The translations under genes and the position numbers were made by a program. Below the pieces are notes generated by a model. It ran no database searches, was not told the origin of the DNA, and saw nothing but the letters and a program-made list of their open reading frames with translations. Below are positions 51,271-64,000 of a DNA stretch of 64,000 bases, one piece after another (the stretch's first letter is position 1; every line of letters begins with the position of its first letter). Where the stretch lies: positions 3,750-67,749 of IMG/VR virus record IMGVR_UViG_3300020046_001459. One strand, given 5' to 3'. This stretch comes from a virus.

Positions 51271-51497
51271 CTAATGCTTAAATTTTTGTATTGTTGAGCT
51301 ATATCAGCAGATAGCTCTTCTGCCTCACAATTCTCTTCTATCCTATCCAGATCCACATCAATGTCATATAATCCCTTCAATTCTTTCTGTATCTTCTTAT
51401 AAGATATGCTTTTGTAATTATGTATTTGTTGTATTGTGCTGATATATCCTCTGAGCGTTGTAGAGGATATATCATCTGGATTTATTGTTTTGGACAT
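51267..51497 (-). CDS. hypothetical protein (76 aa)
   Basis: ORF, coupled. Confidence 0.4.
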   Translation of the reverse strand: MSKTINPDDISSTTLRGYISTIQQIHNYKSISYKKIQKELKGLYDIDVDLDRIEENCEAEELSADIAQQYKNLSIR

Positions 51498-61150: not shown

Positions 61151-61585
61151 TTAACCTAAGATATCCTTAAGTTGTTCTAAAGCCATACGCTTTTGATCTT
61201 CTTCACTTAAGAATTTAGATACTAAATCTTTAGCTTTATTCAACTTATCAAGTTGTTCTTGATGGCTTAAGATATTAATACGTAACTTAATATCTTCCTT
61301 ACAGTCTGCTAGAGTAAAACCATTAACTGAGAATTCAGGATAAGGACTAACACCCAGATCTTTAGCTGCTTCGTCATATGCCTTTTCTTTAGCACAGATA
61401 GTAGAATAAAGTTTAATTAAATTGTCGATCCTCATTTCAGTTTTAATATCACCAAAACCATTTCCTAAAGAACCTGATGTCTTATAAACACTGTCTGTAA
61501 TCTTCTTTAAAGAAGCTAATTTTTCATTGATTTTCTCTAAAACATCTGGAATGTTTACTGCTGGTAAATTTTCTTTGTCTTTCAT
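61151..61585 (-). CDS. hypothetical protein (144 aa)
   Basis: ORF. Confidence 0.5.
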   Translation of the reverse strand: MKDKENLPAVNIPDVLEKINEKLASLKKITDSVYKTSGSLGNGFGDIKTEMRIDNLIKLYSTICAKEKAYDEAAKDLGVSPYPEFSVNGFTLADCKEDIKLRINILSHQEQLDKLNKAKDLVSKFLSEEDQKRMALEQLKDILG

Positions 61586-61618
61586 GTGATTTACTTGTTT
61601 TTATTTGTTATTTATTTG

Positions 61619-61915
61619 TTAAAATATTTCGTAGTCATTGACTACTATAGGTGTTTCTACTAAACATCCTGCTGCTATTTCTTCTGGAGTAGCTTTCCTG
61701 AAATGTCCTTCATTATAATTCCAAGAGTAACCAGCGCTGCCTTCAAATTGAGCATAATTTCCGCTTCTTGTATCATGAGTTAATTGTACTACTTTATTGG
61801 TGAGTTTATCCATTTTATCCACCCCGATGGTACCACAATCCCAATTTCTACATTTACCTTTTTTAAACTTTTCAGAACTACCTATTATTGTTATATATTC
61901 TCCTTTTTTAAACAT
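61619..61915 (-). CDS. small early protein, paralog 4 with C-terminal ..IVVNDYEIF tail
   Basis: Member of tandem family sharing C-terminal motif. Confidence 0.55.
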   Translation of the reverse strand: MFKKGEYITIIGSSEKFKKGKCRNWDCGTIGVDKMDKLTNKVVQLTHDTRSGNYAQFEGSAGYSWNYNEGHFRKATPEEIAAGCLVETPIVVNDYEIF

Positions 61916-61916
61916 A

Positions 61917-62141
61917 TTAAAATATTGAATAATCGTTATTTATTTGTGGTTCTACATTATGTACTTTTTTTACTAAAAAAATATCTTCATATCCCCAACT
62001 ATGTCCTTTAGTGATAGCCTGATTCCAATATAAATCTCCACCTCTAATAAAACAACTTTCTATGGTTCTTTCTGAGGTTCCGCTCCAAGATCCTTTAATA
62101 ATATCACCTGGCCCTAAACTTTGTGCTTCTTCTAATGTCAT
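61917..62141 (-). CDS. small early protein, paralog 3 with C-terminal ..QINNDYSIF tail
   Basis: Member of tandem family. Confidence 0.55.
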   Translation of the reverse strand: MTLEEAQSLGPGDIIKGSWSGTSERTIESCFIRGGDLYWNQAITKGHSWGYEDIFLVKKVHNVEPQINNDYSIF

Positions 62142-62144
62142 GTT

Positions 62145-62426
62145 TTAAAATATTTCATAGTTGTTATTAATTACAGATTCTGGTTGCTTATTTAATACAT
62201 ACTTCTCAAATTGTTCAAATGTTATTTCTTGATAACCATCTAAAATAGCTTTGTTACTACAATTTCCACCACAAAAAGATTTATCTGAAAACATTGTAGC
62301 AGCATCATCGAAAGAAGCGTTATTAGCGTTATTAGCGTTATATTTTTTGTTATTGTATTCATTTAACACTTTATGATTTTTCTTATTTCTAATTATAAAC
62401 CATTTTTTAGGTAACTTATCTTCCAT
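62145..62426 (-). CDS. small early protein, paralog 2 with C-terminal ..VINNNYEIF tail
   Basis: Member of tandem family. Confidence 0.55.
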   Translation of the reverse strand: MEDKLPKKWFIIRNKKNHKVLNEYNNKKYNANNANNASFDDAATMFSDKSFCGGNCSNKAILDGYQEITFEQFEKYVLNKQPESVINNNYEIF

Positions 62427-62428
62427 AT

Positions 62429-62644
62429 CTAAAATATATTATAATCATTAATAATTTCTGATTTGGGTGTTACTAACACACAATTCCTGTAATCATGTCC
62501 ACGATCTTTCTCATCGAATAGAGTCCAACCTACCCTACTTACAATAAATGGGTCATCATAGGTTTTACCAGCATTTGATCCGCCTTGAAATCTTACTACT
62601 TTATCACCTGCTTTAAATGGATTTTTATTCTGTGTTGTCTTCAT
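62429..62644 (-). CDS. small early protein, paralog 1 with C-terminal ..EIINDYNIF tail
   Basis: Member of tandem family. Confidence 0.55.
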   Translation of the reverse strand: MKTTQNKNPFKAGDKVVRFQGGSNAGKTYDDPFIVSRVGWTLFDEKDRGHDYRNCVLVTPKSEIINDYNIF

Positions 62645-62679
62645 GTTTTAATTTTATTTAAATGATTAATTGATTAAAA

Positions 62680-62741
62680 AATAGATGTCTCATAAGTGAA
62701 TGAAAACCCACACGACAAGGGCTAGAGAGCACTTATGAGAC
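62680..62741 (-). terminator. 12-bp perfect stem-loop (GTCTCATAAGTG / CACTTATGAGAC, 31-nt loop) followed on - strand by U6; separates RNA island from early genes
   Basis: Arms at 62687-62698 and 62730-62741. Confidence 0.45.
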
Positions 62742-62785
62742 TAAAGACCCTATTAAGCCTTTTTTCACTCTCTATTTTAATTTGA

Positions 62786-63060
62786 TTGACTAGCTTATCT
62801 GCGCTTATACAACGTGCACCGTTAAAAGCAATTCGTTATATCCAGTTAAGGAGCTCAATGGCCCTACACCACGCCTTTGTATCAATTGCAGACTATCAGG
62901 AAGTGTGTTGTGACTTTCGACTCGACTCTATTACAGACTTCTTACTTCGTACACGGGTTGCTTGCGCCATCCGACATTTGAAGACTACGAGGCTATCCTC
63001 AGTTCTATTCAAGCCCACACACCGATAGCTTTACACTAGTCAATTGGTTGGTAGTTAGTA
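62786..63060 (-). ncRNA. GC-enriched non-coding island directly downstream of tRNA-Met; candidate structured RNA of unknown class
   Basis: No - strand ORF; markedly higher GC than genome; only a spurious + strand ORF. Confidence 0.3.
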
Positions 63061-63106
63061 TAGTTACTTCCTAGGAATAAATGTTTTCACTACACCTCCC
63101 ACCCAG

Positions 63107-63180
63107 TGCACCCTCGTGGACTCGAACCACGCACCTACAGATTATGAGTCTGTTGCTCTGACCAACTGAGCTAAGGGAGC
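63107..63180 (-). tRNA. tRNA-Met (anticodon CAU; initiator/elongator/Ile2 not distinguishable)
   Basis: Cloverleaf: acceptor GCUCCCU/AGGGUGC (one 3:70 mismatch), D-arm GCUC-AGUUGGUCA-GAGC, anticodon stem ACAGA/UCUGU loop CUCAUAA, T-arm CGUGG-UUCGAGU-CCACG, discriminator A. Confidence 0.85.
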
Positions 63181-63184
63181 TTTG

Positions 63185-63570
63185 TGGACCCGAAGGGAAT
63201 CGAACCCTTGTAATCATAAGTTATTAATTAATTTTCTACAAGTTTAGTATTTGTTTTTCTCCCAATACAGGATATTATATTTTTATTCAGACCAGCACTT
63301 AAATATAAAAACACACTAGTCTTGTTAGGTACAAGAACAACTAAACCTTGAGGTAGTTATCTACCGTTAAGCAGCCACAAGTTCCTCAACTTGTGTCTTT
63401 GCTAACATGTTGTTAGCTAGAACGTACTTAAGGTCTTGGATAGATCCAAGGCTTGAGTCTTTGTTGCCAAATACTCGGTTACCTGATAATTTATTAAACG
63501 CTGATATTATCAGACAATGCGTTACTTGCTTGTTAATTTATAATCAAATGACTCAAAACCTGGCGGGCCC
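63185..63570 (-). ncRNA. candidate tmRNA-like RNA (~386 nt) whose 5' and 3' ends form a tRNA-Ala-like domain
   Basis: 5' GGGCCCG pairs 3' CGGGUCC giving G3:U70 wobble and A73; T-arm AAGGG-UUCGAUU-CCCUU; long-range helix 5' UUAUAAAUUAA / 3' UUAAUUAAUAA; internal frame GCA AAG ACA CAA GUU GAG GAA CUU GUG GCU GCU UAA (AKTQVEELVAA*). Confidence 0.4.
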
Positions 63571-63756
63571 AATTTGTTATTTATAATCTCAAAGTTAGAC
63601 TTTCAATTTTCACGGTTTAAAAATAGAGACACGGCTGAACCCCATTTACGGCTGACATACCAATGCCCACTAGCCTTATAAGAATCGAACTTATCCACCG
63701 CATCTCTATTAACAGGAATCGAACCTGCAATCCTCTTTAACTCAATATAAGCAACA

Positions 63757-63969
63757 TTAAAACGGACATACAATGCGTTCTACTGGTTTTAAATCATCCA
63801 CAAAACAAGCCGTTCCGTTAATATAAATTGCCTTTTTGTTTCCTCTTAAAAACGGTTTAATTTCAATACCTCTTTTGGTGTTAATATATTTACCGCATTC
63901 GGTTAGACAAATATCCTCTGATATGAAGTGCTTAACATTGTAAGTATATGTAATTGAAATTGTTTCCAT
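63757..63969 (-). CDS. hypothetical protein (70 aa)
   Basis: ORF near window end. Confidence 0.35.
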   Translation of the reverse strand: METISITYTYNVKHFISEDICLTECGKYINTKRGIEIKPFLRGNKKAIYINGTACFVDDLKPVERIVCPF

Positions 63970-64000
63970 GTTATAAAATTACGCCAATCGAGTAGTTAGT

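Follow-up and report, generated by a model that had tools for sequence, protein, structure and literature searches.

The window analysed here, a 64-kb stretch of the IMG/VR virus record IMGVR_UViG_3300020046_001459, derives from a crAss-like phage, as its open reading frame (ORF) at 9125-13951 matches the Crassvirus muzzle protein family (E = 2e-120). On the minus strand of the window, downstream of a transfer-messenger RNA (tmRNA) and a methionine transfer RNA (tRNA-Met), lies a non-coding segment of 260 nucleotides (nt; 62785-63044), hereafter called the core. We consider it probable that the core is a structured RNA gene of about 260-275 nt, not previously described, which is co-transcribed with the tmRNA and tRNA, trimmed at its 5' end and bounded by a hairpin at its 3' end, and whose central junction is functional. 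The main evidence comes from three variants of the core in related phages, which keep a common Y-shaped three-way junction with compensatory base changes. The evidence for this structure is real but thin, and the distribution of the core is narrow.

The RNA island containing the core begins with the tmRNA (63184-63570), which was recognized by ARAGORN and by Rfam (RF00023, 61.6 bits against a gathering score of 47) and carries the tag GNKDSSLGSIQDLKYVLANNMLAKTQVEELVAA. The tRNA-Met (CAT; 63106-63180; ARAGORN, and Rfam tRNA with 66.3 bits) follows after 3 nt. It is succeeded by 328 nt without a credible ORF (62778-63105), a hairpin module of 101 nt (62677-62777) and the first downstream gene (62429-62644), which encodes 71 amino acids (aa) ending in NDYNIF; all are on the minus strand. 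From the start of the tmRNA to the run of T residues behind the hairpin we measured 895 nt, in agreement with the RNA island of about 900 nt described in a first-pass annotation of the sequence. That annotation had also noted about 275 nt of GC-rich non-coding sequence after tRNA-Met. The enrichment is genuine, with 44-47% G+C in 100-nt windows over 62800-63050 against a comparison value of about 28% and some 20-35% in the flanking genes, and no credible ORF is present, but the stretch measures 328 nt. It consists of two separable modules, a hairpin named hp1 (approximately 63050-63103; in brief, a 60-nt hairpin) and the core.

Three variants of the core share one junction

Loci retrieved from relatives are designated by L-numbers. 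Variant A of the core (260 nt) occurs in the window and in L033, L049, L051, L052, L053 and L057, variant B (274 nt) in L048 and as a partial copy in L151, and variant C (271 nt) in L056 and L058. The three share three blocks of 25-26 nt that are 100% identical save for degenerate positions in the second and third: block 1 at the 5' end is ATTGACTAGTGTAAAGCTATCGGTGT, block 2 in the middle is ACTTCCTGATAGTCT(G/A)C(A/G)ATTGA(T/C)A, and block 3 at the 3' end is TAAG(C/A)G(C/T)AGATAAGCTAGTCAATCA (invariant strings GACTAGTGTAAAGCTATCGG, CCTGATAGTCT and AGATAAGCTAGTCAAT). The two segments between the blocks, of about 110-130 nt and 70-95 nt, are unalignable between variants. The blocks themselves are either identical or differ only at paired positions, so that an invariant junction of about 85 nt is joined to arms that differ completely.

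The predicted structure of the core is a three-way junction in which helix P1 opens onto P2 and P3 through A-rich joiners. P1 pairs the 5' and 3' ends of the core over 10 base pairs (bp), AUUGACUAGU (63044-63035) with GCUAGUCAAU (62794-62785), and is connected by the joiner GUAAA (J1/2, 63034-63030) to the 8-bp helix P2, in which GCUAUCGG (63029-63022) pairs with CUGAUAGU (62899-62892). P2 continues through P2a (63020-63016, with a partner just 5' of 62902) into arm 1. The 4-bp helix P3, formed by CUGC (62891-62888) and GCAG (62802-62799), abuts P2 with no linker and leads through P3a (62885-62883 with 62807-62805 and onwards; the proximal 3 bp pair UUG with UAA) into arm 2, while the joiner AUAA (J3/1, 62798-62795) returns to P1. 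Each of P2 and P3 bears a long arm of about 70-130 nt. RNAalifold applied to the full-length variants gives exactly P1, P2, P3 and the proximal part of P3a.

Covariation was evaluated on an alignment of real nucleotides restricted to the helices, in which the arms were replaced by GAAA and five positions per side beyond the invariant parts were included whether paired or not. Such an alignment tests pairs that reach into the variable sequence without alignment artefacts. The junction helices comprise 35 pairs, and 98.1% of their cells are paired. In six of these pairs (8 cells) both sides change with pairing kept, and two positions show three pair types; no one-sided pair change was found, and the two unpaired cells are located at helix ends. 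None of 500 column shuffles matched the observed covariation, and sliding the partners by 1-3 columns left 0-1 compensated pairs and 26-40% pairing. The compensatory evidence for the core structure is moderate. The suggestion in the first-pass annotation that the GC-rich segment encodes a further stable RNA, to be checked by covariation, is upheld as regards a conserved secondary structure, since three variants, though only three, keep one three-way junction with compensatory changes; the specific candidates it offered, namely RNase P, 6S and intron-derived RNAs, are unsupported and have no Rfam match.

The junction helices include four invariant G·U pairs, one in P1, one in P3a and two in P2. 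These indicate an RNA read from the minus strand, as the opposite strand would place A·C at the same positions. They also bear on a reading of the core as an element that acts as DNA, with its inverted repeats serving as sites of recombination or protein binding, as a structured single-stranded DNA signal (for example in replication initiation) or as a small non-autonomous mobile element; the apparent RNA structure would then be incidental. The ends of the core do form an inverted repeat, TTGACTAG...CTAGTCAA, and the unit is an indel relative to L002. But the G·U pairs in P1, P2 and P3a, possible only on the minus strand, would be mismatches in the repeats of duplex DNA, and the compensatory changes keep pairing rather than sequence. 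We judge a DNA-level element to be very improbable.

Several observations weigh against the core as a structured, tRNA-linked RNA gene. The helices were initially taken from the predicted fold of variant A, and only three variants are available, of which B and C share states and are not fully independent. By a rough binomial estimate, pairing in 8 of the 10 cells that vary would arise by chance with p of about 0.01. Compared with dinucleotide shuffles, the minimum free energy of the sense strand is unremarkable in all variants (z = -0.47 for A, -1.08 for B and -1.06 for C), as is that of hp1 and the core folded together (z = -0.66), and the predicted arms have no common shape. A covariance model of the junction alone, R1, scores true copies at only 21-29 bits and must skip the arms. 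Finally, the core of L151 follows a protein gene, and linkage to a tRNA is consequently not obligatory.

Coding potential

In the GC-rich stretch, the only ORF on the minus strand encodes 40 aa from a GTG start. A plus-strand ORF of 80 aa with a TTG start (62786-63028) runs antisense to the core, and the earlier judgement that it is spurious is supported by its unconserved frame and sequence and by the lack of a family or a called gene. Variant B contains an antisense ORF of 95 aa from the same TTG, but the frame in which it crosses blocks 2 and 1 is not that of variant A. In variant C, whose frame over these blocks also departs from that of A, two stops interrupt the ORF 8 codons after this TTG. 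Amino-acid similarity between the antisense products is limited to MTSLS. Tested against shuffled sequences, the length of the open frame gives p = 0.08 (A), 0.0025 (B) and 0.13 (C), so that only the frame of B is unusually long. The 80-aa ORF has no called-gene record in the collection and matches no Pfam or PHROG family, and no protein-family signal was obtained for the two ORFs tested, one per strand. A conserved coding signal on the plus strand, the outcome named beforehand as contradicting a non-coding RNA, was not found across variants A, B and C.

Arrangement of the modules in related phages

Relatives were retrieved in four ways: through the DNA polymerase in IMG/VR, through exact 19-21-mers, through downstream proteins (the 71-aa and 144-aa proteins, searched in the ENA, Logan and JGI gene index) and through an upstream gene of 121 aa. 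The 71-aa gene, which served as an anchor, has exact copies in 4 JGI contigs and homologues with 65% amino-acid identity in ENA and Logan contigs. Over 62400-64000, the four JGI contigs match the window at 100% and are uninformative.

In L033, a tmRNA with 84% identity is followed by hp1, the core and the hairpin module at 99-100% identity, without tRNA-Met. L002 has a tmRNA (85%), 6 nt and the hairpin module (92%), and is devoid of both tRNA-Met and the GC-rich segment. The tmRNA of L056 falls in the same range, the identity in the three loci being 84-86%. The tRNA-Met is optional cargo and appears as a clean indel in the alignment of the window with L033 and L002. A different upstream context is found in L049, L051, L052, L053 and L057, in which the order is tRNA-Lys, the 121-aa gene, a tRNA with an 8-nt anticodon loop, 1 nt and the core. 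These five loci match the window at 99.6% over 268 nt, the 260-nt core itself being identical, and at 98-99% in the hairpin module; nucleotide identity falls to 73-76% in the adjoining homologue of the 71-aa gene. L048 shares this arrangement, with its core placed 1 nt after the tRNA (gctt) and preceded by tRNA-Lys and the 121-aa gene, and matches L057 at 100% over the 1082 nt before the core and at 97.7% behind it, yet the interior of its core differs and corresponds to variant B. In L056 and L058, the order is tmRNA, tRNA-Met, hp1, an insert of 1.27 kb, the unusual tRNA with the 8-nt loop, 26 nt, core C and the hairpin module. L151 contains tRNA-Met, a gene for an AAA ATPase, 5 nt and the start of a B-like core, at which the contig stops.

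The island is thus composed of separable modules, namely the tRNA-Met cargo, hp1, the core and the hairpin module. The core is present or absent independently of the tmRNA (L057, L151, L002). In the window, in L033 and in L048, L049 and L057 it forms part of a tRNA/tmRNA cluster or adjoins one, on the same strand, with L151 as the exception, and its orientation is that of the tmRNA, the tRNA and the downstream genes. All relatives have the hairpin module, even L002, which has no core; where there is a core, the module invariably follows it at a distance of 7 nt. An earlier proposal that the segment might be a long processed 3' trailer of tRNA-Met is unlikely, given that the core also occurs after a tmRNA, another tRNA or a protein gene and that its junction is invariant.

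The hairpin hp1, formed by the stems GGUGG/CUACC and GGUGUAGU/ACUAUACU, goes with the tmRNA/tRNA-Met side of the island and not with the core. It is placed after the tmRNA in L033 and after tRNA-Met in L056 and L058, where the 1.27-kb insert separates it from the core. Read by eye, the comparison with L033 shows two substitutions, G·U to G-C and U-A to U·G, both of which keep the pairing. We also considered hp1 as a decayed tRNA; ARAGORN makes no call for it even at 70% thresholds.

The tRNA with the 8-nt anticodon loop (L057:1735-1808, L048:982-1055, L049:1324-1397 and L056:2089-2164) stands 1 nt before the core, or 26 nt before it in L056. It is assigned the four-base anticodon 'gctt' by ARAGORN, scores 54 bits with the Rfam tRNA model, and could be a frameshift-type or otherwise non-canonical tRNA. 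The 1.27-kb insert (L056:854-2190, and the same in L058) lies exactly between hp1 and the core and contains three small ORFs; in L056, a SocA/Panacea antitoxin-like domain (E = 1.3e-6) is found in one of these, which is on the opposite strand. Accessory cargo has an insertion hot spot at this locus.

Exchange of the core between phages

Three backgrounds with flanks that differ by 14-27% carry a variant A that is the same at all 260 nt. In such backgrounds, the adjacent gene is 73-76% identical and the tmRNA 84%. Because the same variant is 100% identical in diverged phages and a near-identical backbone carries variant B, we conclude that crAss-like phages circulating together exchange the core and hairpin module by recombination. 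The breakpoints coincide with the invariant blocks. The simplest account is homologous recombination through these blocks between phages that co-occur in the same samples, with a recent spread of allele A. A comparable mosaic is observed in the tmRNA (window 63184-63570, L033:7956-8338, L002:339-722), in which the tag frame is nearly identical and the ends are conserved, and about 70 nt of the pseudoknot region are replaced by unrelated sequence in each of the three loci.

The identity of A across diverged backbones, the different interior on an upstream backbone that is 100% identical, and the insertion hot spot would all suit the DNA-level element considered above. Ordinary homologous recombination through the invariant blocks nevertheless explains the mosaic. 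In addition, the core is present in a single copy in the window, where a search for second or partial copies found no other match longer than 12 nt, and no target-site duplication is seen at its boundaries. A miniature transposable element was rejected on the same grounds of one copy and of no duplication at the L002/L033 boundaries beyond a loose resemblance to AGTGAAAA. No reverse transcriptase, integrase or transposase was detected in the 41 ORFs of the window and 6 ORFs of related loci that were scanned, about one-third of the phage genome lying outside the window. A retron or other RNA linked to a reverse transcriptase was likewise discarded, no RVT family being found in these ORFs. A search of the window for an antisense target of the core returned nothing beyond 12 nt.

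The same exchange pattern can be viewed in terms of selection. The core and hairpin could be an RNA module under diversifying selection, in which the junction docks a partner and the arms are swappable parts conferring specificity or acting as decoys, for example in an RNA that counters or evades host defence or is itself the target of RNA-directed immunity. This reading would explain why variant A is 100% identical between phages whose adjacent sequence has diverged by 24-27%, and why B resides on a backbone identical upstream; if it were true, recombination would let alleles A, B and C sweep through crAss-like phages that circulate together, and the arms would point to a phage-host arms race at the RNA level. 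We think it unlikely to be the right description of the locus.

The hairpin module and its relation to the core

The perfect 12-bp stem with a 31-nt loop and a T6 run reported in the first-pass annotation is present, with 12 of 12 positions complementary: GTCTCATAAGTG (62687-62698) pairs with CACTTATGAGAC (62730-62741). A spacer of 5 nt separates the stem from the T6 run (62681 to 62676 on the minus strand), and the next gene starts at 62644, 31 nt after the end of the run. Only two perfect separated-arm inverted repeats of at least 12 bp within 60 nt exist in the window, this one and another at 51440-51474, which has a 13-bp stem and a 9-nt loop and lies between two minus-strand genes. The perfect 12-bp stem near tRNA-Met is the centre of a 101-nt module that is 92-100% identical in every relative, L002 included. 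The predicted consensus fold of this module includes a lower stem, AAAUAGA/UCUAUUU, which uses the first U residues of the T-run, a small side hairpin (AGGCUU/GGGUCU) and a 5-bp hairpin inside the 31-nt loop. Five substitutions are found among relatives, all of them one-sided with pairing kept (C-G to U·G, U·G to U-A and G·U to A-U), and no compensatory pair occurs among the relatives in this fold, which we regard as plausible.

The hairpin does not look like a textbook intrinsic terminator: its loop is large, only 5 of its 12 pairs are G-C, a 5-nt spacer precedes the T-run, a terminator consensus scan omits it because of a loop limit of 3-8 nt, and the T-run of L056 and L057 is followed after only 3 nt by the start of an ORF. 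Partial termination is possible. The module would appear to be a 3' end or a structure of processing or stability that separates the RNA genes from the mRNA. Three independent short contigs (L059, L060 and L062) begin at the same base of the module (TTTTCATTCACTTATG...), and the retrieved locus of L033 ends at the T-run; these shared starts are probably assembly-graph branch points caused by upstream polymorphism and not a genome end.

The position of the module invites another explanation, that the core and hairpin module together form a structured 5' untranslated region, a cis-acting leader that governs read-through, processing or stability of the mRNA of the small downstream genes and is not a free-standing RNA. 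The only constant neighbour of the core is indeed downstream, being the hairpin module and then the small genes with the NDYxIF ending, and its upstream neighbour varies among tRNA-Met with hp1, tmRNA with hp1, another tRNA and the AAA ATPase gene. The ORF that starts 3 nt after the T-run in L056 and L057 implies that the mRNA must include or abut the hairpin, and an alternative pairing of UAGAGAG with CUCUCUA in the loop of the module is possible, as read from the sequence. On the other hand, L002 retains the hairpin module and the same genes without the core, which is therefore dispensable for their expression. Hypervariable arms would be unusual in a ligand-sensing leader, no riboswitch, T-box or leader of Rfam matches, and no covariation supports any alternative fold. 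On balance, we give a leader function a small though appreciable chance.

A free-standing RNA gene, the reading we prefer, would be made in the following way. The core would be transcribed with the tmRNA and tRNA as part of one precursor. Its 5' end would be generated by the nucleases that trim the preceding tRNA, tmRNA or hp1, and its 3' end would be set or protected by the hairpin module. The invariant junction would represent the working part, most likely a platform for binding a phage or host protein or RNA early in infection, with the arms as peripheral parts.

Searches for known families and further copies

Rfam 15 was searched with all 4227 families. At gathering thresholds, only two tRNAs and the tmRNA were found in the whole window. 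At E <= 10, nothing was obtained for the core or hairpin from 61500-64000 (2.5 kb), from 62660-63110 alone (451 nt, with the most permissive filters) or from variant B, and at E <= 1 nothing was obtained for the core or hairpin module in five related loci. The permissive matches are at chance level, with 10-18 bits to snoRNA and leader models; applied to the tRNA island of another crAss-like phage, the same tool picks out a group I intron (81.5 bits). The core has no Rfam match to RNase P, 6S, group I or II introns, GOLLD, ROOL, HEARO, riboswitches, ribozymes or pRNA, and the proposals of an RNase P-like, 6S-like or intron-derived RNA accordingly find no support in the Infernal-type scans, which give chance-level matches only. 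Inspection of the invariant blocks by eye revealed no convincing match to the hammerhead or other small-ribozyme cores, the conserved regions of RNase P or the thiamine pyrophosphate aptamer.

Searches for further copies were similarly sparse in results. Among GenBank phages, blastn, megablast and tblastn gave tRNA matches only and no close relative. In IMG/VR, three 19-20-mers from the core, an 18-mer from block 1 and a 21-mer from the hairpin recovered only L033 and the contig of L002. A metagenome contig collection returned 0 matches to the hairpin 21-mer and a core 21-mer, and evidently does not contain even the identical JGI contigs. No further copy was found in 28 DNA-polymerase loci and 80 loci of the 121-aa gene by BLAST, a fuzzy block search or the R1 model. 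The failure to find the core in 118 other loci is weak evidence on its spread because R1 is insensitive. Long gaps after the 121-aa gene in other phages were examined as possible analogues of the core, and turned out to hold tRNAs, a helicase gene or a group I intron.

A core 19-mer searched in 185,579 species genomes (one genome each) gave 12 loci, all of them chance matches of 19-28 nt in high-GC genomes. This result speaks against the core as functionless captured foreign DNA or a decaying remnant, such as a degraded host fragment or the debris of a tRNA array. Its G+C content, far above that of the genome, the decayed tRNA-like sequences in the neighbourhood and the unremarkable fold stability would be in keeping with such an origin. 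Against it stand also the blocks that are invariant across three otherwise unalignable variants, the compensatory nature of the changes, the 100% identity across diverged phages and the lack of a protein-family signal in the two ORFs mentioned above. We find an origin as captured or decaying DNA scarcely credible.

Gene neighbourhood

Below the island, the minus strand holds a block of genes for a family A DNA polymerase, helicases, a primase-like protein, UDG and related functions. Four consecutive small genes on this strand (61619-62644; 71, 93, 74 and 98 aa) all carry the C-terminal motif N[DN]Y[ENS]IF. These proteins constitute a tandem small-protein family without a Pfam or PHROG match, the membership of which differs between relatives.

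A GC-richer stretch just upstream of the tmRNA (63621-63786, minus strand) contains two T-arm-like motifs, GTTCGATTC, and ARAGORN finds two overlapping tRNA-like genes there only at thresholds of 70-80%; these are probably decayed tRNA genes. The stretch overlaps a JGI-annotated gene of 56 aa (63603-63773) and, together with a 70-aa gene (63757-63969), is absent from L033. Elsewhere on the minus strand, ARAGORN identifies a tRNA-Phe (35331-35404; Rfam tRNA, 50.3 bits) with the anticodon AAA rather than the usual GAA, and adjacent genes at 36897-39513 have nicotinate phosphoribosyltransferase-family and phosphoribosyl-synthetase/transferase domains, which suggests an NAD salvage module of the phage.

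The 121-aa gene upstream of several cores belongs to a large family with 465 homologues, and in many IMG/VR phage contigs (L071-L150) it has tRNA genes on one or both sides; example loci are L102:3410-3774, L085:3732-3919 and L155:2868-3632. Among the loci of this gene, one has a tmRNA directly after it, one has a group I intron (81.5 bits) and one has a nearby Thg1-like gene of the tRNA-His guanylyltransferase family.

Comparison with known systems

crAss-like phages are among the most abundant phages, and to our knowledge their non-coding RNAs are almost unexplored. At the head of a block of replication genes, the core RNA would join the few phage RNAs without a known role that travel with tRNAs, such as GOLLD, ROOL and the stable RNAs of T4. 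It offers a tractable case, with a small invariant junction (about 85 nt) amenable to mutagenesis or to use as a bait, and with natural arm-swap alleles in nearly isogenic phages that amount to ready-made genetic experiments. No description of it was found in the literature searched. A 2023 structured-RNA screen of IMG/VR, in which a candidate needed at least 3 regions and the average length was 67 nt (PMC10690425), would have missed the core RNA, because the core occurs once in IMG/VR.

By the tests run, the core belongs to none of GOLLD, ROOL, the T4 RNAs and pRNA, and its likeness to them is one of kind or shape only. ROOL RNAs measure about 580 nt. GOLLD and ROOL are structured phage non-coding RNAs of unassigned function that often lie near tRNA islands; one GOLLD RNA was originally discovered in a marine metagenome, downstream of a Met-tRNA, one half of GOLLD is conserved and the other poorly so, and many members exceed 800 nt (PMC12286853). 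The core resembles both in being a phage-encoded structured RNA beside a tRNA island. They differ from it in being two to three times larger and rich in pseudoknots, whereas the core is a simple three-way junction with two variable arms, has come to light in a handful of crAss-like contigs and does not match the GOLLD or ROOL models at E <= 10.

The stable RNAs C and D of phage T4 (rnaC and rnaD, or 'species 1 and 2') are encoded in the T4 tRNA cluster, have about 120-140 nt, and are co-transcribed with the phage tRNAs and released by the tRNA-processing machinery. The candidate core RNA is like them only in kind and in its presumed processing route. The phi29-type pRNA, of about 120-174 nt, has paired ends, a three-way junction and two arms, and its structure is conserved while its sequence diverges between related phages; it belongs to phages in which DNA packaging goes through a protein-primed system, and we know of no crAss-like phage that uses a pRNA. 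Its resemblance to the core, which has no Rfam match, is confined to this shape of paired ends, three-way junction and two arms. The remaining comparison is with the neighbouring tmRNA. The core is without its tRNA-like domain, its tag reading frame and its Rfam signal, but the two share a strand and, presumably, an operon, and in both of them invariant functional parts surround a middle that has been replaced wholesale.

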